This document shows, piece after piece, positions 2,836-54,600 of a DNA stretch of 64,000 bases. Origin of the DNA: Hyaloraphidium curvatum SAG 235-1. Taxonomy: Eukaryota; Fungi; Monoblepharomycota. The DNA lies in contig JAIVFI010000014.1 of NCBI GenBank assembly GCA_025558095.1, positions 186,001 through 250,000 of the forward strand. Direction: 5' to 3'. The translations under genes and the position numbers were made by a program. Below the pieces are notes generated by a model, which saw only the letters and a program-made list of their open reading frames with translations, made no database searches and was not told the DNA's origin. Numbering within the stretch: the stretch's first letter is position 1; every line of letters begins with the position of its first letter.

Positions 2836-2968
2836 CTTCGCGGGCGGGCAGAATTTGGTTGTTGATCGATTCTCGCACGACCGGAGGAGTTGAGTTCCCG
2901 CCTCGCCGACTTGGGCCGCCGAAACCCTCTGTTCCTCTTCTCGGTGCCGGTGTCTGGATTTGGAAAGC

Positions 2969-4062
2969 ATGAGCCGCAAGCGGGCGCGCGTGGTCGAATC
3001 CTCGTCCGAGGACCGCTCCTCGGACGTCTCGAGGTCCGCTTCCTGCAGGGCCCCGTGTTCCGCTTCTTCCGCGGCACCATTGTCGCGCGGGCACCCGACT
3101 CCATCTTTGCGCATCATTTCGGCTCCGGAGGGGTCAACGAGGGCAAGACCGAGCTGCCGGAGACCTACACGCTGGACCGCGATCCGGACGTCTTCGCGCG
3201 CTTCTTCGAGCCGTACCTGAGGGGCTATCCGGGCCCGTCGCGCGCGTCGTGGAACGAGCTCCCGGAGGATACGAAGGCCAGGGTGGCCGCGGACGCGGAC
3301 TTTTACGGAATCGACGGCGTGGTGCCACCGCCCCACCCCGACATCATTCGCACGGTGCCGATCGTTGCTTTCAAGAGGGCGGCGCAGCTGCTGGAACAGG
3401 AGGAATGGGTCGACACAGGGGACGAGTGGACTCTTGTGACGTCGTTCCTCGTTGCTAGTCCGAACACGTATGCCGTGGAGTTCAGATTACACTTCTGCGG
3501 CGTCGATCGCGACCTGCAAGCAAGCTATCGGGGGACAGACGATGACGTTCGCGCCCAAATGGATGGCGTGCAACGCTTTGTACAGGTCAACCGTGTTGTG
3601 TACGATGATGCTGACGAGGGATTGTTCTGGACGGAGCTTGAGAAACGCATTGTGGAAACATGCCCGCGTATGATCACCTCCTGGTTCATGACCTCGCGTG
3701 TCATCATTCGGGGCATTCCGGCGGACGACGTGGTTCACTCGGCAGTCCATGCTGGTGAGAGCGTCCCTGAGCTCAGCTTGGACCGGGCATCCCTCCTGCC
3801 CCGGCAGTCGAGCCTGCGGGCGGACCTCGCTGAAGGAACGGACATTACGCATTCTGCATTTGGCCTTGTGCGCTCGCCGTTCCTCGACATTGAGGCCTCA
3901 ATTGACAAAGCCACTGGGATGTGCTTTCTCAGGGTTGACTACCTGGATCTTTGCTCCCTTGAGGAAGTGCCGCACGATCGCGGAATTTCATCTTTTGGGG
4001 GAACCGAACTGAGAAAAGTACTTACGCCATTGTTTAGTGGGCAGCTTCTGCGTACGGGGTGA
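2969..4062 (+). CDS. BTB/POZ (KCTD-type) domain protein
   Basis: VRFLQGPVFRFFRGTIVARAPDSIF...LDRDPDVFARFFEPYLRG resembles the T1/BTB_2 domain. ATG 2969 is in a different frame, so the model needs a weak 44-nt intron (2990-3033) or a frameshift. Confidence 0.55.
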
Positions 4063-11257: not shown

Positions 11258-11742
11258 ACGGACCTGCGGCCCGTTCAGTGTCATGTCGTGCCTGCTGATG
11301 TCCTACCTAGATGCGAGCCTGTGTACGCCTCATCGCCCGCCCACCGACCTAGACATAGACCCGATACCCCCATTCTCCTGTCGTCTCGCCCCGGTCTCTG
11401 ACGTGGTGCTGCACGCCTGGCAGCCCCGTCCTCAGCATGCGTGCCATCTTGACGTTGGCAAAGGAACCGGGGACGATGGCCTCGTGCAGGGAGCTGCAAT
11501 ATCGCGAAAGCTCAACCAAGTCCTCCTCCATCTCAGTGCGCCGGGCTTCCGGGATGGCGTTGAACAGAAAGCTGCAAGTATCGGCGGCCCACCTTACTTG
11601 CGCAGCGCGGCTGCCAGATCCTTGGCTTTTCCCCCACCAAGAAGAGCAAGTGCGCGGTGAGGATGTACGTGTGATGCAGAGCGGCACCGAGATACTCCTT
11701 TGTGGATTTCCGCGGCCACCGGTCCGTACCAAGTAGGCGTTC

Positions 11743-12218
11743 TGCGAAGGTACAGGACGTCTGACATTCGGACAAGGGTATTTTCATTTTCGGTTCGGAG
11801 GCGTGGAGGCGTCGGTCCTCGCGATCGACTCGTGATCGACTCGCGATCGACTCGCGAGTGACTCGCGAGTCACTCGCGAGCGACTCGCGAGCGACTCGCA
11901 AGTGACTCGGCACAGCCACCCTCCTGGGATATATAAAGAGCGGGACATGTAACAGTACAATCTTGATCGCCAGTTGACTCTACGTGCTCTCCGTGTCGTT
12001 CGACCACCGTGCGGAACCCCGCCCGGCCGGATCCTCGTTCTGAGAGCCCTTGGGACGCACCCCGGGAGACATCCCGTAACCTCTTTCCCCCGGCTACAGT
12101 CAAGTATCTTCAGCGCTGTTCGCTTATTCATATTCAGGGCCTATCCGACCCGAAGAGCCGAGCGGGATTCGCGCGCCGGGTTAGAGCTTCAGGCCCGGTT
12201 CCGACCCGGACCGTCGCA
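11743..12218 (+). repeat. 5' LTR (476 bp)
   Basis: Direct repeat of 21922-22386 with TG...CA ends and 5-bp terminal inverted repeats; carries one extra 11-bp unit. Confidence 0.97.
11816..11937 (+). promoter_or_regulatory. LTR U3 array of 11-bp (G/C)ACTCGCGA(G/T)(T/C) units followed by TATATAAA
   Basis: About 8 units plus a partial (11816-11910), containing a perfect 30-bp palindrome at 11851-11880. TATA at 11930-11937. Confidence 0.75.
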
Positions 12219-12219
12219 C

Positions 12220-12230
12220 TGGTCCGACCT
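12220..12230 (+). other. Primer-binding site, tRNA-Tyr-like
   Basis: TGGTCCGACCT, 1 nt after the LTR, is complementary to ...AGGUCGGA-CCA. That implies C1:G72 and A73, the eukaryotic tRNA-Tyr identity elements. Confidence 0.65.
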
Positions 12231-12385
12231 CCGTGATCCTGCTCTCGGGTCTTCGACACCTCGTTCGACTTCAGTTTCGACTTCGATAATCCAAAAACAA
12301 CTTCGCCTGGCACCGGCGCTTGTCGACTGCCACTCTTTTCTGTCAACCGTATTCCGTCAACCAAGTTCATTCCCCTTCGCCAAAC

Positions 12386-14041
12386 ATGGACCCCGTTCAA
12401 GAAGCCGCCCCTCAGCAGGAGGTTCAGCAGCCTCAGGAAGCTAACGATTTGCAGAACAACCCGCAGGCCCAGGCGATTATCCAAGCTGCGCAGGCCGCGA
12501 TCCAGCAAGTCGGCGCCGCCGCCAACGACGTCGCCCAACTCGCCGCCCAGCAAGCCGCCCAGCAAGCCGTCGCCGATCAGCTTGCCGCTCAGCTCGTGGC
12601 GCAACAGACCGCTCAGCAGTTGCCAGCTGCCCAAGTTCAACAGCAAGCCGCCGCCGAGCAGCTTGCAGCGCAGCAGCTCCAGCAGCTCGCCGCACAGCAG
12701 CAGGGTCAGCGGAGCGAGCAAGCCCCGGCTGTCAACGCTGCCGCCGCTGGTCTCCAGCCGCAGCAGTTCGTCGACGCCGTACGGGCCATCGTTGGCGCTC
12801 AGCCGCCGAACGATGGAAGCACCGGCCTCCCCCAGGCGGATCGCCAGGGCGGAGCCGCCAAGCTCCCGGCTCAGCTGCTGCCTGCTTCTGTTCAGCCCTT
12901 CGATCCCGCTACGCAGGACCCGGAAGACTTCTTCCGCGACCTCACTACGGTTCTCACGGCGTTCGGCTCCATCAACAACCTCGTCAAGGTCTTCCCGGTC
13001 TTCCTTGGGCCTCTGCCGCGCGCAATGTGGCACAACATCACGCCGCAGAACCGCCCTCCGGACTATCCCGCGACGGCCACCTATCCTCCGGTGACCCAGA
13101 ACGATGTGCTTGCCTGGCTACGCTACCACTTCGAGCCCCGCGACGCATCGATGCATTATCGCCGGCACTACAACACGATTCAGATGACCAACGATGAGAC
13201 CCTCGACGCCTTCGTTGCCCGCGTATCCCTGGCCGAGACGCGTTTCCTCTCGCACTGCGGCGATCAGCTTCCTACCAGGGAAGTGCAAGACAGCGTGTAC
13301 GGCCAGAACCTGCTCTACGGACTGCGCCCGGAGCTACGCGGGAAGGCGCTGGAGCTCCTCGGGGATCACCTCATCAACCGCACTTCCGTCACCAAGGTCA
13401 TCGAGAAGATGCGCACCGTCATGCAAGCATCGGGCCCTGCGCAGCCGCGCGACATCCGTTTCCTGGGCCAGAACTCGATTTCGGAGATTCCGGCTCTGGT
13501 CGGCCAGCACTCGTCTTCGGGCTCCTCCAAGGCGACCGACAAGGCGACGACGGAAGTGCTGCTGGCTCATACGCAGGCTCTCACAAAGCTGCTGGAGCCT
13601 AAGGGAGAGCGCAGGCCCACCGGTGGACCGCCGGGGGAGTCTGCGTTCCGGCCTCCGCGCCGTTTCGTCCCCTTCCAGTCTCGTCGGAGCCAGCCGTTGC
13701 CGCCTTCGGGGCCGAACAGCGACCTCGTCGAGATCAAGGAGCTCATCACCAAGCTGCTGCCGTCGCCTCGCCATCAGGTTCAGGCCGCGGAGACCAGGTC
13801 GAACCCCCCCGCGAGGCCTCCTCCGATCGATCGGCCCCGCCAGCAGCAGGAGCGCCAGGATCGCCGGCCCTTCACCTCGGAGTACCGCGACCAGAAGCGC
13901 TTCCAGCCTCGCCACTGCCATCTCTGTGGCATGGATGGGCATGCTCAGGACGAGTGCTGGGAGTTGGAGAAGAATGCCAACCGCCGCCCACTCAACTGGA
14001 AGTCTCGCCTCGGCAACACCCCTTCGATGCCAAAAAACTAG
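12386..14041 (+). CDS. gag: Gag (Q/A-rich N-terminus, retrotransposon capsid, CCHC knuckle)
   Basis: IQMTNDETLDAFVARV (MHR-like), LLYGLRPELR, CHLCGMDGHAQDEC. Confidence 0.93.
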   Translation: MDPVQEAAPQQEVQQPQEANDLQNNPQAQAIIQAAQAAIQQVGAAANDVAQLAAQQAAQQAVADQLAAQLVAQQTAQQLPAAQVQQQAAAEQLAAQQLQQLAAQQQGQRSEQAPAVNAAAAGLQPQQFVDAVRAIVGAQPPNDGSTGLPQADRQGGAAKLPAQLLPASVQPFDPATQDPEDFFRDLTTVLTAFGSINNLVKVFPVFLGPLPRAMWHNITPQNRPPDYPATATYPPVTQNDVLAWLRYHFEPRDASMHYRRHYNTIQMTNDETLDAFVARVSLAETRFLSHCGDQLPTREVQDSVYGQNLLYGLRPELRGKALELLGDHLINRTSVTKVIEKMRTVMQASGPAQPRDIRFLGQNSISEIPALVGQHSSSGSSKATDKATTEVLLAHTQALTKLLEPKGERRPTGGPPGESAFRPPRRFVPFQSRRSQPLPPSGPNSDLVEIKELITKLLPSPRHQVQAAETRSNPPARPPPIDRPRQQQERQDRRPFTSEYRDQKRFQPRHCHLCGMDGHAQDECWELEKNANRRPLNWKSRLGNTPSMPKN

Positions 14042-14080
14042 CTTTGCCCTCAGTGCCGCACGGCCATAGGGGGGCAGAGA
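14032..14080 (+). other. -1 ribosomal frameshift signal (A AAA AAC plus downstream stem-loop)
   Basis: Heptamer 14032-14038 sits immediately before the gag TAG; the -1 frame is pol (KKLALPS). CTTTGCCCTC can pair with GGGGGCAGAG. Confidence 0.85.
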
Positions 14081-17000
14081 TCCAAGCTCTTGAACCACAT
14101 GTGGAACCTCTTCCTGGAACTTCCCCGCTGCCGGACGGCACGGACCCTTCATCTCCTGGCGGATCGCCGGAGTTGTCGGATTCCGCGACCGATGAACCGA
14201 CGGCGGAGGACCACGTTCATCATTGGCCCTTCGGGGGCACGGAGTACATCCTCTTCCTCGAGGCGGAGGCAGCTCGACAGGCCGCCGTTCGTCAGCAGCG
14301 GGAGGCGCTCATGCCGATCGACGAGACCCTGGCCCCGCCGCCGGCAGCGGATTCGGCGTCGCCCGGCTCGGTCGAGGTCGTGGGAAACGGTGAACCGGCG
14401 GCACAGGATGCGGACGCGGGATCAGCGGATGCACCTATGCACGAGGGCCCGACCGTCCGCGCCGTTCCCGGACCTTTCGAAAGGCCCCCTCCTCCTTCCG
14501 CCTACGCACGACCACCGCTGCCTGGCCCTCGGCCTCGCCCGCGGCCACCTGCTCCGGTCGCCCCTCCGCCGGATCGCTGGACGTGGACTTCGCAAGTGCA
14601 GTTCCACTATCAGGCGGCACGCGTTTCGGCATGGGTCAACGGCGTGAATACCCCCGCGGCCCTCGTCGACTCCGGTGCCTCAGTGGTGGCGGTTCGGTCG
14701 TCCTTCTTCTGCCGGATCCACCCGTCGCCACCGATCAAACCATGGACACTCGGCACCCTCAGCACGGCCGCGGCCGGCGGAACCATGTGGGTCCGCGGAG
14801 TTGCTAAGATGGACATCCTGGTCGGGAATCAACACTGCGTCATGGACGTCGCCATCATGGACGGTCTCATGGACGACGTGATCCTCGGCACCCCTTGGCT
14901 CTCCGCCCTACGCGTTCAGATGGACTGGGAGACGCCGGTCCTCTATTTCAAGGACGATCCGGAGGGGGTCGTCGTGCCAATGCACATTGTTGCGCGACCG
15001 CTCTTCGGATCACACCTGGTCGCCCCGCTCCATTCAACCACCTCCATCACGGTCTACCCCAACGAGGACGTCTCGATCACCGCTGAGCTGGCCCCGACGA
15101 CTCCCTTGGCGACCGTCGTGGAGATGGACTTGACAGGGGTCATCGAGACGCCGAACACTTCGCCGTTCGATCGCCTCTTCATCATCCCGTCGGCGACGCC
15201 CGACAGAGACGGTCGGCTGCCGATTCTCATCCGCAACTACGGGACGACACCGGTCACGATCGGCCCGGGCACCCACCTCGGCCGCTTCCGCGTGCGGATT
15301 CCTGGATTTCTCGCTCCGGAACCGCCCACGTATCTGGCTCCCGCGCAGATCTCGATGCTGGAGCCCGAGCTGCCCCACACCGAACCGGCCGAATCCACGC
15401 TCACGGTCGAGGAGACCATCGATCTGTTCGCGGTGCCCTCGCCGGGATCGATTGGACCACCTCAGCCTCCCGGCGTGGAGCCTCCTCCGGTCGAGGCTAT
15501 CGAGCTCAAGATGGACCAAACGATCCTGAGCGAGGGGGACAAACCTCGTTTCCATAAGCTCTGCGACCGCTACCGGGACGTGTTTGGTCCTTGGATCGGC
15601 AAGCTGCGCAACCATCGCTTCCGGATCGACACGGGCGACCTCAAGCCGATCCACCAGATGCCGTACCGGACCCCGTTCCGGCTTCGCGGGGAAATGGACA
15701 AGATCATCGACGACCTGCTCGTGCAGGGCGTAGTCGTCCCCTCGCGAAGCCCCTGGGCCACGCCCTGCATCATGGTGCCAAAAGGGCACGGCTCGGGCGA
15801 ATGGCGCCTGGTGATCGATTACCGGAAGCTCAACGCCGCCACCAAGCGCGACGTCTACCCGATGAAGAACCCAAGCGACACTCTCGCTCTCCTCAGCGCG
15901 GCCAAGGTGTGGAGCGTTTGCGACATCCGCTCCGGCTTTTGGCACGTGGAGGTGGCCGACGAGGACAAGGAAAAGACGGCCTTCACGACGCACCGCGGTC
16001 TCTACCAGTGGGAGCGGATGGCCATGGGCTTTACCAACGCTCCTGCAACCTTTGCTCGGATCATGGACGAGCTCCTCGCCGGCCTCCAGTGGTACTGCTT
16101 GGTGGTCTTCATCGACGACATCATTATCTTCTCGCAGACGGTCGACGAGCACCTCGTGCACCTGGAGCTCCTCTTTGACCGACTGCGCGAGGCCGGGATG
16201 ACTCTGAAGCTGGCCAAATGCAAGTTCTTCCGCCGCGAGGTCAAATACCTCGGGCATTACGTCACCGCCGACGGCCTCAAGGTCGACCCCGAGAAGACCC
16301 GCGCGGTGGACCAGTTCCCCCGCCCAACGACCAAGAAGGAGCTCCAATCGTTTCTCGGCCTCTCCAACTACTATCGCCCCTTCATTGCCGGCTACGCCAA
16401 CATTGCCAGCCCGCTCACCCGCCTGACGCAGGACGGCGTCTCGGTCTCTCGGGCCTGGGACGACGCATGCGAGGCCGCCTTCCGTATGCTAAAGGAACGG
16501 CTTACGTCGGCGCCCGTGCTCCGTCGCCCCGACTTTTCCAAGCGCTTCGTCTTGTTCACGGATGCCAGCGATATCGGCCTCGGCGCGGTGCTCAGCCAGC
16601 GGGACTCCGATGGCAAGGAGTACGTCATCGCCTACGCCAGCCGCGCTCTGCAGCCGAACGAGCGCAAGTGGGACACTCGGGAGCGCGAAGCCCTGGCCGT
16701 TGTTTGGGCATGCGAGCATTTCCGGGCGTATTTGATCGGGGACGAGTTTGAGGTGGTCACCGACCATAGCGCCCTCAAATGGCTCTTGGAGACCTCCAAG
16801 CCGGGCCGCCTACAGCGCTGGATCCTCCGGCTCTCGGACTTCAGGTTCCAGATCATCCATCGCTCGGGCAAAGCGAACTCCAACGCCGACTTCCTGTCTC
16901 GTCAGCTCGTGGCGCCGTCGCCCGACGAGGACGTGCCTATGGGCGACCCCGAGGAAATCTTGGACATCCCTGCCTTTTGGCCCCCAAACCCTCCCGACCC

Positions 17001-19089
17001 CTTGCCTTTTTCTTCTTTTTCTGGGGGGGGACGGGCGCCCGGATTCCTCTCCGGGAGTGATCTCGGTCAGACTTCCCGTTCTTCGTCAACCCCAGTCACC
17101 GAGTCAGACTCGGGACGAGCTACTGCGGGTTCCTCAGTCAATTGTGAATCAATGGAGCGAGTGCTGTCTGGCACGGAGTTCCCGGCCACGGTTGCCGCAG
17201 TGGAGGGAACCCTGTGGAGCGATCCGGGGACCCTGCCCGAGGCTGCGGCACCGGAGACGCAGATCCTCCTGCCGATCCCAACGACGAACGCACAGGTCGA
17301 CCCGGCAGACGTGCCTGAGCGAGACCTGGCGTTCCTTCATCCGGCACTGCTTGAGGTGCTACCCGATGTCGGGGGCATCAGTGCTATTGACCTTGCCGAC
17401 GTCAGATCCCGGGATGCCCTGCGCAAAGTGCAAGAAGCCGACGTCGAGACCAGCGCGCTGATCCGCTTCGTGCGAGACGGGGAGCTCCCTCCCAACGTGA
17501 ATCTGGCCAAATTCTGCAAGAAGTACGGCGAGCAGTACTTCCTCGCTACGGACGGCGTGCTCTGCCGGCGCGATGTACTCGCGACTGGTACCCGTCGTAT
17601 CCCGGTCACCCAGCTCGTGATACCGCACGAGCTGAGGGAGGCCTACCTGCAACGTGCGCACGACGATCCCCTGAGCGGGCACGTCGGGCGACACCGGGCG
17701 TACAGCAATCTGCGGCGCCGCGTATATTGGGTCGGCATGGCGCACGACGTTCGCCGCTGGACGCGAGCCTGCCTTACATGCATGACCCGGAAGATGCCTT
17801 CGGTATCGAACCAGGGCTTACTGAAATCGGTTCCTCTCACTGGTCCCAACGAGGACATCTACATCGACTACATCGGCGAGATCAATCCGGCCACGCCCCG
17901 CGGCAACAAGTACCTTCTCGTCGTCTACGATCCGTTCACTAAATGGGTCGCGGCGTATCCGACTCCGGACCTCTCTGGGCCGACGACGGCGAAGCTGCTC
18001 TATACGCGATGGATTCTCGAGCACGGTCTTCCGAAGCGGATTCACCACGACAACGCCTCGAACCTGGACAACCATTACATGGAGTACCTGCTCAAGCTAC
18101 TCGGCATCAACCGGGGCCTGGTCACGGTTGGGCATCCCAGGGCTTCCCTCGCGGAGCGCCCGAACCGGTGGATCATCGACGCCCTGAGCGCAGCGGTCTC
18201 CAAGAACTACCAGACATGGGACGAGGACATCGTGGGGGTCATCTTTGCCTTCCGGACCTCCATCCACGCGACGACCGGCGAAACTCCGTTCTTTCTGATG
18301 CATGGTCGGGATGCTCGTATTCCGCTCGACCTACTTTACGACGAGACCGAGATTCGCGAGCCAGTGCACCTGCGGGCCAGCGACGAGGAGGACAAGAAGA
18401 CAGAGGATGAGCGCCGGCGGACCTACGTCGTGGAGCTCGTGGCGCAGCTTCGTGCGGCCTACGACCTGGTGGCCGAGAAGATGGCCGCAGCGGCGGAGAC
18501 TCGGAACGCCAAGGCCAACGCTACCCGGCTTCCGATTACCTTCCGCCCCGGCGACCTCGTGCTCATCTGGGGACCAGAACGACCGCGCAAGGGCGAGCCG
18601 GGCAAGTTCGTCTCTCGTTATCTTGGGCCCTACCGCATCGAGGAGTCAGGCCACACCGAGCTCACCTGGAAGTGTAGACACGTCTACGAGACCGACCACG
18701 TCACCACTGTGCATGTGGACCGGCTGGCGCGCTACAAGCCTTGGGAGTCGGCCACCTTCAACGCGCGCTCGTGGAACGCACGCGCCCCGGAGCTCGCCGC
18801 CGGTGAAGAGCTCGATCTCTCGGAACCGGTGAACGAGTTCGAAGAGGAAATCGAGGTCGAGAACGCGCTTGGGAACGAGCAGGAGTACACCGTCGAGGAC
18901 ATCGTCGGCCACGAGGGCCAGGGTCACGGACTCAAGTTCGAGGTCAAGTGGCGGGGCTTCGCTCGCACGACCAAGCTCCCTCTGGACATGTTGCACGGCG
19001 CCATAGGGATCGTCCGCGCCTATGCCGATCGCGTTGGTCTCCAGCTCCCGACGGGTCTCCCCAGGCGCATGCGGACTCGGCGTCGCTAG
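14038..19089 (+). CDS. pol: Pol polyprotein: protease, dUTPase-like spacer, RT, RNase H, integrase, GPY/F, chromodomain
   Basis: ALVDSGAS; VFIDDII; FTDASDIGLGAVL/REALAV/TDH; H...H...CLTC; IDYIG/HHDN/AERPNR; LGPYRI; YTVEDIVGH...FEVKWRGF. No internal stops. Confidence 0.97.
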   Translation, partial: LALPSVPHGHRGAEIQALEPHVEPLPGTSPLPDGTDPSSPGGSPELSDSATDEPTAEDHVHHWPFGGTEYILFLEAEAARQAAVRQQREALMPIDETLAPPPAADSASPGSVEVVGNGEPAAQDADAGSADAPMHEGPTVRAVPGPFERPPPPSAYARPPLPGPRPRPRPPAPVAPPPDRWTWTSQVQFHYQAARVSAWVNGVNTPAALVDSGASVVAVRSSFFCRIHPSPPIKPWTLGTLSTAAAGGTMWVRGVAKMDILVGNQHCVMDVAIMDGLMDDVILGTPWLSALRVQMDWETPVLYFKDDPEGVVVPMHIVARPLFGSHLVAPLHSTTSITVYPNEDVSITAELAPTTPLATVVEMDLTGVIETPNTSPFDRLFIIPSATPDRDGRLPILIRNYGTTPVTIGPGTHLGRFRVRIPGFLAPEPPTYLAPAQISMLEPELPHTEPAESTLTVEETIDLFAVPSPGSIGPPQPPGVEPPPVEAIELKMDQTILSEGDKPRFHKLCDRYRDVFGPWIGKLRNHRFRIDTGDLKPIHQMPYRTPFRLRGEMDKIIDDLLVQGVVVPSRSPWATPCIMVPKGHGSGEWRLVIDYRKLNAATKRDVYPMKNPSDTLALLSAAKVWSVCDIRSGFWHVEVADEDKEKTAFTTHRGLYQWERMAMGFTNAPATFARIMDELLAGLQWYCLVVFIDDIIIFSQTVDEHLVHLELLFDRLREAGMTLKLAKCKFFRREVKYLGHYVTADGLKVDPEKTRAVDQFPRPTTKKELQSFLGLSNYYRPFIAGYANIASPLTRLTQDGVSVSRAWDDACEAAFRMLKERLTSAPVLRRPDFSKRFVLFTDASDIGLGAVLSQRDSDGKEYVIAYASRALQPNERKWDTREREALAVVWACEHFRAYLIGDEFEVVTDHSALKWLLETSKPGRLQRWILRLSDFRFQIIHRSGKANSNADFLSRQLVAPSPDEDVPMGDPEEILDIPAFWPPNPPDPLPFSSFSGGGRAPGFLSGSDLGQTSRSSSTPVTESDSGRATAGSSVNCESMERVLSGTEFPATVAAVEGTLWSDPGTLPEAAAPETQILLPIPTTNAQVDPADVPERDLAFLHPALLEVLPDVGGISAIDLADVRSRDALRKVQEADVETSALIRFVRDGELPPNVNLAKFCKKYGEQYFLATDGVLCRRDVLATGTRRIPVTQLVIPHELREAYLQRAHDDPLSGHVGRHRAYSNLRRRVYWVGMAHDVRRWTRACLTCMTRKMPSVSNQGLLKSVPLTGPNEDIYIDYIGEINPATPRGNKYLLVVYDPFTKWVAAYPTPDLSGPTTAKLLYTRWILEHGLPKRIHHDNASNLDNHYMEYLLKLLGINRGLVTVGHPRASLAERPNRWIIDALSAAVSKNYQTWDEDIVGVIFAFRTSIHATTGETPFFLMHGRDARIPLDLLYDETEIREPVHLRASDEEDKKTEDERRRTYVVELVAQLRAAYDLVAEKMAAAAETRNAKANATRLPITFRPGDLVLIWGPERPRKGEPGKFVSRYLGPYRIEESGHTELTWKCRHVYETDHVTTVHVDRLARYKPWESATFNARSWNARAPELAAGEELDLSEPVNEFEEEIEVENALGNEQEYTVEDIVGHEGQGHGLKFEVKWRGFARTTKLPLDMLHGAIGIVRAYADRVGLQLPTGLPRRMRTRRR
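17011..17033 (+). other. Putative central polypurine tract
   Basis: TCTTCTTTTTCT-G8-ACG resembles the 3' PPT context CCTTCTTTTGGGTGGGGGCG and lies ~40 nt from the element midpoint (17064). Confidence 0.55.
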
Positions 19090-19159
19090 TAACACCAACG
19101 ACGTCTATCCGGTCACAGCACTACCATCTCTGTGCTCCGATCCCCGGCTTTTCACTGAC

Positions 19160-20145
19160 TCAAACCCGACGTACTACCTCGAGCCTATCCTCGACCCCCT
19201 CGAACGCCAACTTGTGATACCCGGACTGAAAATGCGTGTTCAGATTGCCCAGGAGGCCCTTAGCCTTGTGCTTTACCAGATGGCACCACGGGAACGAGCA
19301 TACCGCCACTTCGCCCTTGGTGGGGCTCCGGTACAGTTCGCCGGCGTACGTTCCGGCAATCTTCCATCGGAGGAAGGAGCCTGCCGGCACGGCATCAGGG
19401 ACCTTCTTCGTCACCCGTTCCGCCTTCAAGCCCCAGACCGGCGACGACTTCTTCATCTGGCACATTCAGTGACGATCAGCGCTTGTGGGGCGTACTCCCG
19501 TCGAGCCGTTCACCTGCGCAATCTGCTCCCGGGCCTCCCCGCGCTGCACCACATGCCCCTCGTCTTTACCTGAAGTTGCCGTTTGGGCCGTCTGGAAGGC
19601 GCTCCCTTGTTCAGTGGCGGCCTCGAAGTCGCCTAAGTGGTCCAGCTCCCAAGAGGGCGCATGAAGCGTGACTGACAGCACGGGGACTTCGTCGGCCGCC
19701 TCGAGCTCCTCCCTCGAGTCCGCCGCCGACTCGCCCTCGCCGACGGAAGGCGCACCCTTCGACGACATCGCCGGCAGGAAGACGCCGGAGGTCCGGGTTG
19801 CGGCCGCGGCCGCGATCGGGTCGTTGCCTCTGGCCCCGCCAGCCTCGCGCAGCTTGGCGGTCCCGCCGGCCTCGCGCAGCTCGGCGACGAGCCGACGGAG
19901 CACTCGGACCTCGACAACGACGTTCCCAGCCTCTTCGGCCAGCGGCAACATCCCGCGCATGGCGGCCAGACGCACCAGTTGCAGGAAGCAGTCGACCACG
20001 TCGTCCTCCTGGCGCGGCGCTGAGCTCCCGTTCGAGGACCACGCCGCTACGCTCTTACCTTGGTGCACAGCAGGACGTCGAAGGTCGGCAACCGAACCTC
20101 GAACCACGAACTCGGCGGGACGACGTTCGGCAGCTCCGCACTCAT
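19160..20145 (-). CDS. Spliced antisense accessory gene of the retrotransposon, ~292 aa, C-terminal C2H2-like zinc finger
   Basis: Exons 20145-20059, 20008-19514 and 19456-19160 join in phase 0 through introns GTAAGA..CAG (50 nt) and GTGAAC..GCTGAT..CAG (57 nt). Finger: CSFPWC-x14-NTHFQSGYH. Confidence 0.7.
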
Positions 20146-20284
20146 GACAGGCGCGGAGATCCCCCCAGCTCTTCTGGACCCTACGTCGCGATCCCCCGCG
20201 AGCGCTTTCGTCGACGCAATGGCGTACGGCCCTCGCTCGCGCCCCGTCCCCCGTGGCGGGGACTGGTGACCCGGTGTGCGGGCG

Positions 20285-20445
20285 AACTCGCGGTCGACTC
20301 GACTCGCAGTTGACTCGCGGTTGACTCGCGGTTGGCTCGCGGTTGACTCGCAAGTGACTCGCGAGTCACTCGCGAGTCGCTCGCAAGTCACTCGCGAGCG
20401 ACTTGCGATGCACTCGCGAGTTGCCTGCGCTTCGCACCATATAAG
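20285..20445. promoter_or_regulatory. Internal copy of the 11-bp repeat array plus TATAAG; putative bidirectional promoter
   Basis: About 12 units (GACTCGCGGTT, GACTCGCGAGT, CACTCGCGAGT...) at 20285-20421, with palindrome GTGACTCGCGAGTCAC at 20354-20369. TATAAG at 20440-20445, about the same spacing from the array as in the LTR. Confidence 0.7.
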
Positions 20446-20513
20446 CGGCGGACCACAGGAGGCCGCGGCCGCGGACTACGCACCCAACGTCGACCTCGCC
20501 GCTACCGTCTCCC

Positions 20514-21779
20514 ATGGCGACCCCCACGACTGCCGGCCACAACCTGCGGCCCCGCCGGCCGCATGTGGCCACGGCGCCGCCGCCGGCGACTGCGCCCGTC
20601 GCTGCGTTGCCTGGCGTCGTACCCCCGGACTATCGGTCGGCGCTTGCCTCCCTCTCGACCCGGCTGGACGACCTCCGGGCCGACCTCGACGTCAGACACT
20701 CCCAGACGACGGCCCACTTGCACAAGGTCGAGCAGGCCGCCTTCTCCGCGGTCATGCCCATCCGCGCAGCCCTCGACGCACTCCACCCGGTGCTCAACAC
20801 CCTCGTCAATGTCGGCAACCTGGAGCAGCACGCTCTTGACCGCGTAACGGCGACGCTCGAGCAGCAAGAGGCCCGCCTGGACGCCCAGATCCGCCAGCAG
20901 CGTGACGAGCTCCAGGTGGTCCTCAGTGGCCGCCACCGCGAACTTGAGTTCGCCGTCACCGCCTTGCGCCGGACCGACGACGCTCGTCTCGGTGCCATCG
21001 AGACGCAGCTCGACCGGCTTGCGTTGGTGCTCGAGGCTCAACGTCAGAACTTCAACGGCATTCTCCTGGTGGACGAAGCTACCATCGAGGAGTTGAGGGA
21101 GTTCGGCTCTTCCCTCGCCGGGCTGGTTGCTCAGACCGGGACCAACCTCGAAACCACCATCGAGACCGTCGTCGAGACCAATCTCGCCCGTCACAACAAT
21201 GGCCCCATGGCGGAGTTTGCGGCCGACCTCAAGAGCGTCCTGGCGGCCCATCTGCAGCGATTTGGGTCGGAGCAGCACAAGCAGCTCATGCTTTCAGCTC
21301 AAGACCACACCACGCTCCTCACGGCCGGCCTGAACGCGCAGCGCGAGCACTTCACCAAGACCGCCGACGAGCAACGGGCCCTCCTGCGTCGCTTCCTCGG
21401 CAATCAAGTGGCTCCCCTGGCGGGGCAAACGACGCCCGCCGTGGTCACCTCCACGCCGGTCGGCCGCGTCAAGGACGAGGACCTCGTCACCTCCGACGAT
21501 GAGGCTGGGGATATGCAACCTCCAGCTCCTCGCCCCGAGAGCGTGTCCAGCAGCGACGCCTCCTCCATCGTCTCGCAGGACGACGGCCTCTTGGCCGCCC
21601 TGTACGACGACATCCCGGCCGCTCCCTACAAGTCGACCATGCCCCCGGTCTACACCCCCTCGGCCGCGGACGGCTCAGCCGTGCATGCCGCCTTCGCTCT
21701 CGGCTTTACCCGCCGGCTCCGCGCCCCGCCGCCGAGCGACGACGAGGCGGACGCCGACGTCGACTTTGAGGACGCCTAA
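20514..21779 (+). CDS. Intronless 421-aa coiled-coil accessory ORF in the env position
   Basis: ATG-initiated ORF with strong GC3 bias, heptad-rich core (LSTRLDDLRADLD...LEQQEARLDAQIRQQRDELQ) and acidic tail; no signal peptide or TM seen. Confidence 0.8.
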   Translation: MATPTTAGHNLRPRRPHVATAPPPATAPVAALPGVVPPDYRSALASLSTRLDDLRADLDVRHSQTTAHLHKVEQAAFSAVMPIRAALDALHPVLNTLVNVGNLEQHALDRVTATLEQQEARLDAQIRQQRDELQVVLSGRHRELEFAVTALRRTDDARLGAIETQLDRLALVLEAQRQNFNGILLVDEATIEELREFGSSLAGLVAQTGTNLETTIETVVETNLARHNNGPMAEFAADLKSVLAAHLQRFGSEQHKQLMLSAQDHTTLLTAGLNAQREHFTKTADEQRALLRRFLGNQVAPLAGQTTPAVVTSTPVGRVKDEDLVTSDDEAGDMQPPAPRPESVSSSDASSIVSQDDGLLAALYDDIPAAPYKSTMPPVYTPSAADGSAVHAAFALGFTRRLRAPPPSDDEADADVDFEDA

Positions 21780-21910
21780 GCCACCCTTCGGCCCTACACT
21801 CTCCAACATCTGTTGTCTCCACCTCGGCCTTCAACATCTTCTACTGCAAGCATGACGTCACTCCGCGGAGGATCTTCGATTTCGTGGCGCCGAGGGCGGC
21901 GCCTTCTTTT

Positions 21911-21921
21911 GGGTGGGGGCG
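21911..21921 (+). other. 3' polypurine tract
   Basis: GGGTGGGGGCG preceded by a T-run, abutting the 3' LTR. Confidence 0.8.
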
Positions 21922-22386
21922 TGCGAAGGTACAGGACGTCTGACATTCGGACAAGGGTATTTTCATTTTCGGTTCGGAGGCGTGGAGGCGTCGGTCCTCG
22001 CGATCGACTCGTGATCGACTCGCGATCGACTCGCGAGTGACTCGCGAGTCACTCGCGAGCGACTCGCAAGTGACTCGGCACAGCCACCCTCCTGGGATAT
22101 ATAAAGAGCGGGACATGTAACAGTACAATCTTGATCGCCAGTTGACTCTACGTGCTCTCCGTGTCGTTCGACCACCGTGCGGAACCCCGCCCGGCCGGAT
22201 CCTCGTTCTGAGAGCCCTTGGGACGCACCCCGGGAGACATCCCGTAACCTCTTTCCCCCGGCTACAGTCAAGTATCTTCAGCGCTGTTCGCTTATTCATA
22301 TTCAGGGCCTATCCGACCCGAAGAGCCGAGCGGGATTCGCGCGCCGGGTTAGAGCTTCAGGCCCGGTTCCGACCCGGACCGTCGCA
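21922..22386 (+). repeat. 3' LTR (465 bp)
   Basis: Identical by eye to the 5' LTR except for one fewer 11-bp unit. Confidence 0.97.
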
Positions 22387-23286
22387 GTTCGAGATGACGC
22401 ACCGGGCCAGGTTCTCGACCAAGTCGACGTCCTCCGCAATTCTCCGGCGAAGAGACCTGGACCAACTGATCAGCTTCATCAGCCCCAGGGCGTGGATCGT
22501 TGGGGGCCAGATCAAGCCTGGGAAAACGAGCACGTCAAAGCCGCGCAGAGTAGTGGAGAAGGCGTCGTTGGTGCACCCCACCAGCAAATCCCGAAGCTGG
22601 GGATACCTTCAGCGTAATCGGAGGTCCGCGTCCAGGTACGCCTCCATGCACCGCCGGCCGAGGCCCAAGACGCGGTGGAGCAGCTGACCGAGAACTCGCT
22701 GAGCCATGCCCGCCGGGGGACGCCCTCGCGGCGGGACCATCGGAGGAGTGAAAAAGTTTTCCAGCAGCTCCCGTTCGTCCACGCAGTGCTCTCGTCCCGG
22801 CTCCGACTCCTGTTCGTCGTCCACCAAGCCCCCGAGAAGGACGAGGGCAGCCTCCAGCGACGAAGCAGCCTCCTTTGAGGTATCAAAGGCTTCCAAGGTC
22901 GTGGGGTCGCTGGGAGGGATCGTTTGGTCCTTCCGTCGAGCACGGAGGAACTTGAGGACCTCATCCAAGGCTTCATTCCCAGCAGTGTGCTGGCGCTCGA
23001 TCTCGGCAAGGAAGCCGGCCTCGTCGAAGGCGCTCCAGGACATGGTTGCGGCGAGAATGGAGCACGCGCCGGAATCACGGAGGACGCTGAAAGCACGTCT
23101 GGAGATGCGGCGGTGCGGTTTTCGGGAACAGCAGTACGAGCCGGAAGCTCTCCGCGACTGCTCCCCGCCATCACGGACGACGGGATGGATGATCTGATTG
23201 CCTGCAATCAATTGTCTTCCGAGCGATGCTCGCGACAGCATTTCTTCCCGTGCTTCCTTCACAGAGCAGACCAGAGATCGCCGCCC

Positions 23287-24116
23287 TCAGTTTCCGGTAA
23301 CTTCGCCAAGAGCCACTTTGCGAGCCAAGGCCTGTCTCACTTCGTGATCAACAATCGCATCTACAAGCGACAGTCGGACCGAACCCACTTCAAGGACCAG
23401 CCCCGAGACGACGTGTTTGGCGGCGATCGCGTGCTTCCTGACGTTGGCGACGGTGGTGCAGACCGTGGAGCACATGAAACACTTGAGGTGCCCCTCAGCC
23501 CCGCAAAAGTCGTGTGTCTTGCTGTTCTCCTTCTTCTTAAAGTGAAAGTTGCACACAGAGCACCGGGCCCCGCCCCCGGGGAGCTCGCGGACCACGTTGC
23601 GCATGTTGTCACAGACGCCCTTGTAGTGCCGGGTCTCCATTTTGATCACGGTGTCCTGCCCGTCTTTGTCGGCCGCGAGCTCGACGGCGACCTTGATGCG
23701 CCCCTTGCCCTGGTCATCCTTGTAAACCAGGGCCGTGCGGGGCGTGCAGACCGCCCTCTCTACGTCCTGACTCAGGCAGATCGTCCTGGCCATAGTTTTG
23801 CTCGTGGTGTTGTCGGTGTTGGCCGCTGATGTCCGTCGTCAGGGCCTGAGTCGAACGCTCGCCGCGATCGGGGGGCATGAACGCACCCGTAACCTTGGAG
23901 CGCCCTTTCCCGGCCTTCCTCAGCCCGGCAATCATCCCTCCGCGCTCGGCCTTGCTGCTACGAAAAGGTTGGGTCTCGACGCGGGTACAGCCGGACTTCG
24001 CGCGGGTCCCTGCCGGCATCGGCCGCGGTGAGCTTCTGGCCGGGCCAAAGACGGGGCAGACCGCCCCTACCGTTGCGCGCCTTACTGGCAGCTGCCTTGG
24101 TAGTTTTCCTGGCCAT
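23287..24116 (-). CDS. Basic-tailed Cys/His zinc-finger protein, paralog A
   Basis: First exon MARKTTKAAASKARN. Last exon HYKGVCDNMR...GGGARCSVCNFHFKK...HDFCGAEGHLKCFMC...RKH. Middle exon boundaries are approximate. Confidence 0.65.
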
Positions 24117-25606
24117 TCTCGCGGTTTCTTGGATGGGTTGGTGGGGTCGATTTTTCCTAGTTGCGGATCCGGTTAGCATCAAGCCAGTAGGGGCTCGCCG
24201 CTGCCTCCACGACCCGCGCGATGTGCCAGTCCTGCGGCCATGATCCCGTGGCCACAGCGGCCCCTAGTTGCGCGCAACGGGTTCTGGCCGCCGGCGGCGG
24301 CGCTCCGGCCCGCATGGGGCCGCGGCGCGCGGGCGGGAACGCGGTCCGCCGCGGGCACGAAACTCACGAATGCGCCCGTCGAACGGCTTGCGCGCCCGGC
24401 AACGCGTTGCGGGTGACCTTGGGAGGGTCGCCTTGTGAGTGGATGGGCGAGGCTGCTGGCGGAAGAGGGGGCGCGGCCAGGCGTAGTTGCGGGATGGCTG
24501 CCTTGCCGGCACCGCCAGCACCAGCCCACACATGTCTCGCTTGTACCCGGATCCCACCCAACTGAACGCTCCCGAGCCGATCTGGAAGCATACAGCCGAT
24601 ACCGAATAGGTCCTCCTTTGCCCTTTGACCGCGATTCGCATGGGATTCGGGGCCCCTTCTCCCCCGACGACCACGGCAAGTCGCTCGCATCCGATGGCCG
24701 GATCACGCCTCCATCGAGCCACAAATCTCGTGCCGCATAGAGGAGAGCTCTTTTATGCGTTTGATGGTGCCCAATGCAGCCGCAAAGGTCCCGGCATCCG
24801 CGCGCAGCGCGCTCTTCTACCATAGATCATCCCAAGGAATTTCGGAGAATGGTCGACGCGGCGAGGTCTCTTTTGGCTGTTCCGCACCCGGTCGTGATCA
24901 GCCGAAGGATTCCGATACCGATGGGCTCCGTCACAGTTGCTCCAATCCGACGGCCTCGGCCGCAGAACGAATGCTTGTATTCGTTTGCCAGCGCAGTACT
25001 CTCCACAAGCGGAAAGATCAATCAGTCTGCATCATGGTGCAGGGACACTCACACGCGGTGATGAAATGCCAGGCGACCGACATCGATGATGCTGTCGGTC
25101 GCCCGTCGTCGGGCCGGACTGCGCTTTACCGTCTCCTTATCCTGCATCTCCCACCAAGGCTTGCAGCTTCGAAAATGAAAAACACTGAACTCTCTGCAAT
25201 CCATAAGAACTCGAAGCATAGATGACGAAGACCATCGTGATCGCTGTCTTCGACCAAGGTGCGGGTGAGAGGGTTCACTTGAGACGAGGGTCCGCGGAAA
25301 CCGATACCAGGATCCGTCCCCCATCCGTCTATCCGCAGTCGCCGCGCGGGGCGCAGCCGCGCAAAACGGCTTTGGAAATGAGAGAGACACCACCTCACAG
25401 AAACACTCTATCGTCCCATTTCGCTGCCCGCCAACGCGTTGGTGCGGGAGAGTTTGATCCGCCGCCGCCCGCGTCTCGGCCGCTACCCGGATCCGAGTTG
25501 ACGGCCAAACCCAGACGCTTGTCCAACGGCCTCATCTCGGAATCCCGGTGCTTGCTCGGCTACGCGGGAGCAATGCCGGGACGCTCTGACGTCGTGGTTT
25601 GTACTG

Positions 25607-27081: not shown

Positions 27082-27915
27082 ATGCCCAGGAAGGCCAACA
27101 AGAAAATAACCGCGAAAGCCAAGAAGGGTAAGTGCATTGCGGCGCGAGGACGGAGGTGAAAAGAAGGCGTGACGCCTTCTGTACTAGGCGCCGGCTCCGC
27201 CCGCGCGAAGCCCCTCCGCGCCAAGACCAAGGGAGTCCAGAAGCGCCCCGGATCGCCCTCCAAGATCGTCAAGAAGCTACCCAAGATGCGCAGGGCCGGA
27301 GGGCGACGTGGAAGGGCGATTCCCGACCAGCATGTCCCCGGTAAGCGCGGACAGTCCAAGCCAGGTCCGACGCCCTTTGCTCACTTCCACACTCGCACGC
27401 CAGCGAACGCAATCAACAAGACCAACGCCAGGAAAAGGTGCTTCGAAATGGAAGAGAACTTCCGCGCGGAGAACCCCGGGATGTGGCCCGAGCCCGTCAA
27501 GTGCGAGCCTTGGGACTATGTCGCGACCATGCAGGGCGGCGCGGTGCAGGTCAAGCCGGTCCTGCACCCCCAAGGCACCAAGGTGGCGGTTTCCAAGACG
27601 TTCCACGTCAAGCACGTCGACATCTGCCCCAACAAGCGGCGCTACGCGCTGATCTACGCGCTCGGCGGCGTGGCCTGCGTCGCCTGCCAGAGGTTCTTCC
27701 CCAAGGTGCACAACGGCGAAAGCCACGCATTCTGCTCATCGCAGAAACACATCGCCTGCTTCGTGTGCAAGGAGAAATTCAACACCCTGGCTGGGTTCCA
27801 GAGGCACTCGGACAAGGGCACGTGCATCGCCGAAGATCACGGCTACGAGGTCGAGGAAGGTGGGCGGTACGCCGGTATCGAAAGTGCCGAGCTCATGGGC
27901 GATTTGCTCCTCTAG
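27082..27915 (+). CDS. Basic-tailed Cys/His zinc-finger protein, paralog B
   Basis: MPRKANKKITAKAKK followed by a GTAAGT donor. HVDICPNKRR...GGVACVACQRFFPK...HAFCSSQKHIACFVC...QRH aligns with paralog A. Confidence 0.7.
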
Positions 27916-53109: not shown

Positions 53110-53759
53110 TATCTGTAGCAATGGTTGAGCATACACGTCGAGCATCCCCTCTTCTCCCTCCCCTCTTCTCCTTCCCCTTCCCCCTCCTTCCTCTTTCCCA
53201 AGGATCGCGGCGTCCTTCTTGTACCCACCGGCGGCCGCTGCTTCGTCGATCGACATGAGCACGGTCTTGTCCGGCGCAACTCCGATGTCCCCGAGCACCC
53301 GGGACAGATCCTTGAGGACGCGCGCCTTCTCCGTCTCGGCATTGCGCCTTCCTCGGCGCGCGCTTGGCTTGCCGCCGTCGCCCTCCTTTTGGGCTTGCGA
53401 TTCTTCCCCATCGGTGTCGGCCGCGCGGGGAGGAGAAGAGTCTGTCCGGCAGGCTAGCGCTCGCGAATCCCGGACGCGATCGTCGGCCGCGTGGAAATGA
53501 AAAAGGATACGATGGAATGACGCGCCCGAAAGGCCACGCCGGGCAGTGCGTCGGGGAGCCGACGTGAAACGGAGCGCGGGACGATGGGACCGCGTCCATC
53601 CGCGTGAAGTCAAGATCGAACCGTACGGCGAATTCAACGCACGGCCGCCGCAACTACAAGTACGACGGCGTCAAGTTCTTCTCCGAGCCCTTCGCTTACG
53701 GCCCAATCGCGTCGCGGCACAGGTGCTCGTCGTGACGATGGACGCCAGATTTTTCCTCG

Positions 53760-54600
53760 CGCAGCGGCGGAGCCCTCCCTCCCTCGGTGGGTTCGACGGA
53801 CGAGAAGACGGCATTCCTCGCTGACTCTCTCCTCCCGTGTCCCTTTCATCTGCTTTGACGCCCGCTGCTGCCCACCCGAAGCCTGTCCCGCCGCTGGGTA
53901 TTCCCATGGCTCGGCCCGATTCGCTTCCTTTCCGTCAGCACGGCGCGCCTCCTTCGGGGGGACTGCCTGCGGAGCTTCGAGCGCCGCAGGTAGGACTGCC
54001 TGTGCGGCCTCGTCGCCGCCGGCGGGGACTTGGATTGCGGCACCTGCGCCGGTCTCCTCGTCTGGCTCCGTTGCGAATCGCATCGGATCGTCTCGTGCTA
54101 GCCGAGCGCATGGGCCCCGCGATGGGATGGGAAGGGATGGGAGGCTCCGCGGTTCTGGTGGTGGCGCCCTCTTACTCTTATTGCTGGACGAGATGCCGGA
54201 CGTCTGGACGTTTGTCGCTGCGCGGCGGAGCCCTCCCTTCCCTCGGTGGGTCCGACGACGGAGACGGCGCCATTCCCTGCTGACCCTCGCCGCCTGCATC
54301 GCTTTCGCCTGCCTTGACGTGCATGGCGGACCAACAAAGCACCTTGTCTGTCTTCGCCGACTGGCACGCTAGCCCATTCCCCGCGCGCGGAGCTCCTCCT
54401 TCGGGGGGACTGCCTACGGAGCTCCGTGCTTCGCTGGTAGGACCATCTGCCTGTGCGGCCTCGTCGCCGCCGGCGGGATATCGAGGTTTGCGGCGCCCGC
54501 GCTGCTTGCCTTGCGAAGCTCCGCGGCGCTCGGATCGGGTTGTGTCTTGCCGACCGAGCGCACGACCTCGGTGACGGGATGGAGGTGGGGTGGGGAGAGT
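53760..54600. repeat. Diverged direct duplication, period ~450 bp
   Basis: Shared blocks GCGGCGGAGCCCTCCCT..CCCTCGGTGGGT, CTCCTTCGGGGGGACTGCCT and CTGCCTGTGCGGCCTCGTCGCCGCCGGCGGG at ~53760-54120 and ~54220-54600. Confidence 0.8.

Follow-up and report, generated by a model that had tools for sequence, protein, structure and literature searches.

Two extra genes lie head-to-head between pol and the 3' LTR of a retrotransposon in a 64-kb stretch of DNA (the window, analysed over its whole length), and the spacer that separates them carries tandem 11-bp repeats of the type found in the LTRs. This arrangement raises the question of how the two genes are expressed, and of which protein might act on a repeat that is common to the LTR and to the interior of the element.

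The element is an intact LTR retrotransposon that spans 11743-22386 of the window. Its 5' LTR (11743-12218, plus strand, 476 bp; terminal inverted TGCGA/TCGCA) and 3' LTR (21922-22386, plus strand, 465 bp) differ solely by one 11-bp unit and are flanked by a 4-bp target duplication (GTTC at 11739-11742 and 22387-22390); the element is therefore very young. A primer-binding site that starts with TGG (12220-12230, plus strand) has no complement of at least 8 nt in the LTR, so the element is not self-priming, and a polypurine tract lies at 21911-21919 (plus strand). The gag-position open reading frame (ORF) of 551 aa (12386-14041, plus strand) has no Pfam gag match. An A AAA AAC heptamer (14032-14038) stands just ahead of its stop, and pol, which is in the -1 frame relative to it, is open from 13603; we infer that translation passes from gag to pol by frameshift. 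Pol (14311-19089, plus strand) comprises protease, reverse transcriptase (RT), RNase H, integrase and a C-terminal chromodomain-like segment. The gypsy order of its domains (PR-RT-RH-IN), together with the paired TG..CA LTRs, the target duplication, the primer-binding site and the polypurine tract, places the element in Ty3/gypsy. The C-terminus of pol matches Pfam Chromo weakly (15.3 bits, below the cut-off of 25.1) and matches the C-terminus of a chromo-bearing protein, P0007 (E 2e-8). A search with pol returned 596 matches among 7991 scored proteins, none of them a close relative, the best RT identity being about 50% or less.

The extra genes were followed in assembled contigs of sequencing runs, from which starts and strands cannot be read, and in lists of splice joints, which record presence only. 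Run X1 was taken as RNA, a guess backed by its two GT-AG joints, and X2 and X3 are DNA runs; four freshwater runs (X4-X7) yielded short pieces only. Cover in X1 is nil at the unique flank (23419-24218) and at 12219-12618 and slight past about 22095, and these gaps were not used as evidence.

The antisense gene, on the minus strand throughout, starts with an ATG at 20145. Exon 1 (20059-20145) is followed by a 50-nt GT..AG intron (20009-20058; joint 20007>20058, cut +1, in X1), by exon 2 (19514-20008), which encodes a short amphipathic helix and then an acidic low-complexity region, by a 57-nt GT..AG intron that contains an in-frame stop (19457-19513; joint 19456>19514 in X1), and by exon 3 (19160-19456; 98 codons and a stop), which encodes a beta-rich extension and a C-x4-C-x16-H-x5-H finger. 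Removal of both introns leaves an open frame of 292 aa from the ATG to the stop at 19160, and retention of either one shortens it to 32 or 209 aa. Both joints are absent from X2 and X3, whose contigs run through intron 2 unspliced; a 39-nt version of this intron was ruled out by the 57-nt joint. Spliced contigs alone predict depths of 126.3 and 411.0 in the intron bins and account for those seen (126.3 and 412.3), so the spliced form is the form kept by the assembly. The finger exon has a net charge of +9, and the remainder of the protein one of -14.

The sense gene is an intronless ORF of 421 aa (ORF421; 20514-21779, plus strand) with gene-like codon statistics. Residues 38-299 are predicted to form long helices, which an acidic disordered tail accompanies. 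The product is not env-like, since it lacks both a transmembrane segment (maximum 19-residue hydropathy 1.2) and cysteine; it also has no Trp, and its single furin-site-like R-x-K/R-R is at residue 12. A Foldseek search with the coiled coil found no structural relative, with no match at E<=0.001 among viral structures. Modelled as a trimer, residues 36-300 give an in-register coiled coil with a score of 0.53 (best control, 0.00), and across runs at least 56% of contacts agree, with partner pLDDT of at least 65. In calibration, 21 of 30 solved pairs from microbes attained this mark, as against none of 23 single chains; for eukaryotes the figures were 17 of 29 pairs and none of 30 chains. This supports a protein that would self-associate as a homo-oligomeric coiled coil, its copy number (trimer or dimer) not being fixed by a calibration on two copies and a job run with three.

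That these two genes exist, a spliced antisense zinc-finger gene with its ATG at 20145 and a sense coiled-coil ORF of 421 aa with its ATG at 20514, was the core of the original prediction, and both hold: the first through the two X1 joints and the 292-aa frame, the second as an ORF, with the coiled coil a matter of prediction. Structure prediction of both proteins was of uneven use, giving helices for ORF421 at a weak pLDDT of 52.8 but failing for the single-sequence fold of the finger (pLDDT 39.8). The GC3-GC2 bias of either gene is equalled in 0 of 2000 shuffles; in synonymous-codon scoring, the frame used by the finger gene comes second (0.026 vs 0.051). On splicing, a conserved paralog (described below) and codon-position bias, both extra genes look real. 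Two other ORFs were dropped, namely an overlapping sense ORF of 183 aa (19022-19573), which has a negative codon score and a GC3 of 0.64, and a minus-strand ORF at 20502-21251, which is a codon shadow of ORF421.

In X2 and X3 the whole element is covered and the unique flank is nearly bare, and the depth of long DNA contigs in X2 is 34-40 over the extra genes against 36-43 over gag-pol; although depth does not equal copy number, this suggests that the element belongs to a multi-copy family, most members of which have the module. A variant with 17887-19925 deleted, the joint of which occurs in X1 and in the DNA run X3, has lost the finger and kept the spacer and the sense ORF, which fits either action of the finger protein in trans or its dispensability. 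Among 7995 scored proteins, the only homolog of ORF421 is P0001, which represents another copy and differs in its modelled N-terminus. NCBI labels it as Hyaloraphidium curvatum, an early-diverging fungus that is probably the host here. No host homolog was found among these proteins, and a metagenome scan confirmed none of 598 stretches.

Arrays of period 11 occur at three places in the window. The U3 array of the 5' LTR (11818-11909, plus strand) consists of 8.4 near-palindromic units of the CTCGCGAG type and is followed by TATATAA at 11930-11936; that of the 3' LTR (21997-22077) has 7.4 units and is followed by TATATAA at 22098-22104. The third array lies between the extra genes (20286-20423, no strand assigned); period 11 is seen at 20301-20421, with 11 units at 20303-20423 and degenerate units upstream. 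It is palindromic as a whole, three of its unit variants are identical to LTR units, and a plus-strand TATAA (20440-20444) comes after it. A two-unit pattern has 31 matches in the window, all 31 inside the three arrays, against a chance mean of 0.71, and none of 100 shuffles reaches this number. Plus-strand TATAA occurs only four times in the 64 kb (11932, 20440, 22100 and 50816), in 0.2% of 40-nt windows, and three of the four lie downstream of arrays, at 27 nt (internal) or 26 nt (LTR) from the start of the last unit. This arrangement is well beyond chance. The octamer CTCGCGAG occurs twice in the window outside the arrays and is therefore not a common host promoter motif there, whereas the hexamer TCGCGA is frequent in this CpG-rich DNA (38 in the window, 23 of them outside the arrays).

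Similar arrays were found elsewhere, at six metagenome and three viral loci. Nothing encoded at the former is related to the proteins of the element (best tblastn E, 0.31), and the latter are phage replication-initiator regions; all nine were taken as convergent. At two of the loci (L004 and L005) the 11-mer arrays stand ahead of a transposase-like ORF.

Is the internal array part of a promoter? The stretch from the internal TATAA to 20514 is free of ATGs in the sense direction, as is that from the array to 20145 in the antisense direction, whereas antisense transcripts originating in the 3' LTR would have 21 ATGs ahead of the finger start; the joint lists, which are presence-only data, contain no splice that connects the LTR or leader with the sense ORF. 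From these features we consider it probable that a divergent internal promoter lies between the two genes. Its antisense arm has no TATAA, a motif that is rare throughout the window. The locus had been described as an internal copy of the LTR enhancer within an independent bidirectional transcription unit. What the internal site and the LTR have in common is the three unit variants and the TATA spacing; homology between their flanks is unconvincing, since 37, 75 and 10 of 300 shuffles reach the same scores, and when the sequences immediately after the two arrays are compared, the top alignment is no more than the 6-nt TATA, so the internal site is not a duplicated LTR segment. As to the unit, its anatomy (a rare TATA, LTR-like spacing, no intervening ATGs) fits the description, but the contigs reveal neither start site nor strand.

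If there is such a promoter, the finger protein is its most economical binder, because the motif is private to the element. Exon 3 was compared with 1.84 billion representatives and gave two matches. The credible one is P0003 (KAI9034073.1), a protein of 274 aa also labelled Hyaloraphidium curvatum, which shows 43% identity across 90 residues (E 4e-11) and retains the C, C, H and H ligands, the aromatics and the short N-terminal helix; the other, P0004, is a bacterial Ig-repeat protein and spurious. A search of exon 3 among 36 longer candidates found nothing, no sequence match in the PDB was significant, and neither exon 2 nor exon 3 has a match in Pfam, TRP28 included. Look-alikes of exon 3 in the Atlas include zf-BED (0.92; a family on 12% of the cluster) and Spin-doc fingers (0.90), with recognition at 2277, below the guide value of 2300. 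Spin-doc fingers are linked to DNA transposases. Like the BED fingers of ZBED1/DREF and hAT transposases, as far as the available text describes them, this is a single CCHH finger with conserved aromatics (PMC7471704). It differs from them in its longer beta-rich extension, in the lack of a Pfam match, and in having C-x4-C rather than C-x2-C, so that its spacing departs from the BED signature CX2CXnHX3-5(H/C) given in the same source. The BED protein ZBED1 is described there as binding a site with a TCG(C/T)GA core, which the array core matches, although this hexamer is common in the CpG-rich DNA studied here. We treat the BED-like resemblance of the finger as a lead only.

The explanation that we tentatively favour is that 11-bp repeats of the LTR type and a TATA box form a divergent internal promoter, and that predicted binding by the finger protein regulates both this promoter and that of the LTR. 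Taken by itself, binding of the finger protein to the array is a serious but doubtful possibility, judged from sequence features. The repeats would be candidate protein-binding sites, one per helical turn; the arm with the TATA would give the mRNA for the 421-aa protein, and the TATA-less arm that for the finger protein. The latter is laid out like a transcription factor, with a basic C-terminal finger and an acidic low-complexity middle, and its short conserved helix could dimerise on the palindromes. Its first target would be the internal array of 11 units and its next the U3 array with 7-8 units, producing positive feedback. Because the finger gene is antisense, its introns do not read as introns in the packaged strand and would therefore survive the RNA intermediate, and hence reverse transcription. 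The 421-aa protein would be a soluble coiled-coil scaffold or co-factor, which is a guess, and not an envelope. The full scheme, in which a BED-like finger transactivator made from a divergent internal promoter reads identical phased palindromes there and in U3, and switches on full-length RNA and the coiled-coil protein, is on the unlikely side as a single proposition.

The promoter anatomy would fit equally well if the internal divergent promoter were real and co-regulated with the LTR while a host factor bound the repeats, leaving the finger protein to counter silencing, target integration or bind RNA. Consistent with this, the finger is assigned to no DNA-binding family, and the known antisense extra genes are without an established function (PMC7264820). 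Across 64 kb with many host genes, however, there is no second array and no excess of the octamer, CTCGCGAG being restricted to its two occurrences outside the arrays. A common host motif is thus unlikely, although a rare stress factor is possible, and we regard this alternative as unlikely overall.

A further possibility dispenses with the internal promoter. Antisense RNA could start in the 3' LTR, as for HBZ of HTLV-1, and the sense ORF could be read from LTR-derived RNA, with the array serving as an RNA hairpin or persisting as a vestige. One X1 contig connects spliced exon 2, by way of the array and the sense ORF, with position 21949 in the 3' LTR, so that RNA covers the array; either genomic RNA or antisense RNA begun in the 3' LTR would yield it. 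The TATATA of the LTR is symmetric, a CAG at 20456 is a possible splice acceptor, and the spacer RNA folds strongly (z -4.09, 0 of 100 shuffles), the internal array giving a long hairpin. Such folding, however, follows trivially from palindromic units, and the 21 ATGs would precede the finger start. A strict branch-point scan, which found no sense acceptor ahead of 20514 but would also miss intron 1, was left out of account. The joints listed include none that leads to the sense ORF, and nothing in this reading accounts for a TATAA, rare in the window, that follows the internal array at nearly the LTR distance. Expression from the LTRs alone is thus distinctly unlikely. A last reading, which we hold to be very unlikely, takes the module as cargo: two host genes captured together, or a DNA-transposon relic (a finger gene with phased subterminal repeats), from which the LTR later borrowed its repeat and whose proteins contribute little to retrotransposition. 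The BED and Spin-doc look-alikes, the link of BED fingers to transposases (PMC7471704, in part), the arrays ahead of a transposase-like ORF at L004 and L005, introns that suggest capture at the DNA level or in antisense, and a paralog known as a single sequence all point that way. On the other side, this young element has the module in intact form, and the gag-pol-like DNA depth suggests its presence in most copies; domain searches of the element and of exons 2 and 3 found no transposase remnant, and the search among 7995 scored proteins found no host homolog of the sense ORF beyond another copy.

Each part of the arrangement has a precedent. Antisense additional ORFs between pol and the 3' LTR (aORF-3R) are described for Grande (gene23), rice RIRE2, Retand and the fungal Boty (brtn) (PMC7264820, in part). 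The present gene is of this kind, being a transcribed antisense ORF, with minus-strand GT-AG joints in X1 and a 292-aa frame, in the same position. It differs in having two verified introns and a CCHH finger, in a head-to-head sense gene, and in an array that is the U3 unit and is followed by a matching TATA. According to the available text on Silene, tandem arrays occur in the aORF region of about half of the Retand elements that were active recently (PMC11963269); in contrast to that lineage, our element has no TRP28 match in Pfam and its host is probably a fungus, not a plant. A regulatory role like that of retroviral accessory proteins has been proposed for antisense extra genes, with no target given in the accessible portions of these papers (PMC7264820, PMC11963269). 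The element offers a candidate DNA-binding protein together with a sharply defined candidate site that is confined, within the window, to its LTR and putative internal promoters; with both in the same element, the idea of a regulatory role becomes testable.

Expression from an internal promoter has also been described. Grande gene23 of maize, the product of which is nuclear, is served by an upstream promoter of its own (PMC7264820, in part), and Tor3b and Tor4b of Oikopleura express a third, sense ORF from an internal promoter, Penv, which in Tor4b lies in the space after pol (PMC4402516, in part). These are exceptions to the premise that ORFs in the env position depend on splicing from the LTR, and they make internal expression less surprising than had been claimed. 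Tor Env, however, is a transmembrane glycoprotein, whereas the 421-aa protein lacks such a segment, and the available text on Tor describes neither a divergent partner gene nor a repeat shared with the LTR. By its description, ORF421 also resembles the non-envelope ORF3s of LTR elements in bdelloid rotifers, which are also sense third ORFs without env homology, include a coiled-coil type and, in the text available, typically come from spliced messages (PMC5408684). A literature search that covered few subscription papers found neither a description of the element nor any case of two divergent genes flanking a repeat-plus-TATA block that recurs in U3; the combination is thus without precedent in the literature searched.

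A parallel for the proposed circuit is that of the foamy viruses. Their Tas protein, a DNA-binding regulator of 209-308 aa, is made from an internal promoter and acts there and in U3, which gives positive feedback (PMC3798896, in part). The circuit proposed for the finger protein would work alike, and the units common to U3 and the internal array are candidate response elements. There are differences too, as far as the source describes the viruses: foamy viruses are retroviruses with env, and tas is in the sense orientation, whereas the putative regulator gene is antisense here; and their LTR and internal response elements share little identity, whereas those of our element are near-identical tandem palindromes. 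We take the parallel as a working hypothesis. If it is true, complex retroviruses are not alone in self-transactivation via an internal promoter, which evolved independently in a retrotransposon of a fungus.

Besides the full-length Ty3/gypsy element, a variant exists in which window positions 17887-19925 are deleted, its joint (17886 to 19926) being found both in X1, the sequencing run that we take to be RNA, and in the DNA run X3. What is lost is the zinc finger of the antisense gene and the greater part of the integrase; the sense 421-aa ORF and the spacer that separates the two extra genes are retained. X1 and X3 also contain, at 15820-16272 and 17826-18353, diverged sister elements whose reverse transcriptase is ~88% identical, and 23 of the 24 differences listed for 15858-16053 fall in third codon positions. 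For the extra genes, no long diverged contig was present among the contigs listed, at 80% likeness.

Insertion of the element appears to have interrupted the minus-strand reading frame of a gene; when its flanks (11443-11742 and 22391-22690) are rejoined as an empty site, this frame contains a single stop in 600 bp. Contigs of X1 enter foreign sequence at 18992 and 21920, which suggests that other insertion sites hold a truncated copy and yield RNA that extends across an LTR boundary. The modelled N-terminus of P0001, a relative of the 421-aa protein from another copy of the element, is likewise foreign.

Elsewhere in the window, an intronless single frame of at least 1162 aa (1-3486, minus strand) encodes a class-V aminotransferase domain of cysteine-desulfurase-like type together with a PP-loop ATP_bind_3 domain, a possible sulfur-donor/tRNA-thiolase fusion. 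Close to the element lie two small orphan ORFs (23287-23793, minus strand; 27286-27915, plus strand) with weak Pfam matches to C2H2-like fingers, for which tblastn found no kinship to the element's finger. At 53724-54477 lies a tandem duplication, now diverged, whose period is ~450 bp.

Arrays of 11-mers related to that of the spacer occur in three metagenome loci (L005:41-195, L004:1115-1340 and L001), ahead of a transposase-like ORF that is Cys/His-rich, had no match in Pfam and may resemble GCM-type fungal transposases. Near-identical 11-bp palindromic arrays are found in three viral loci (L007:5990-6033, L008:5044-5220 and L009:5990-6020), inside or directly upstream of phage replication-initiator genes. 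Their likeness to the element's array probably reflects convergence on helically phased binding sites; in their placement at replication-initiator genes, the viral arrays resemble iterons.
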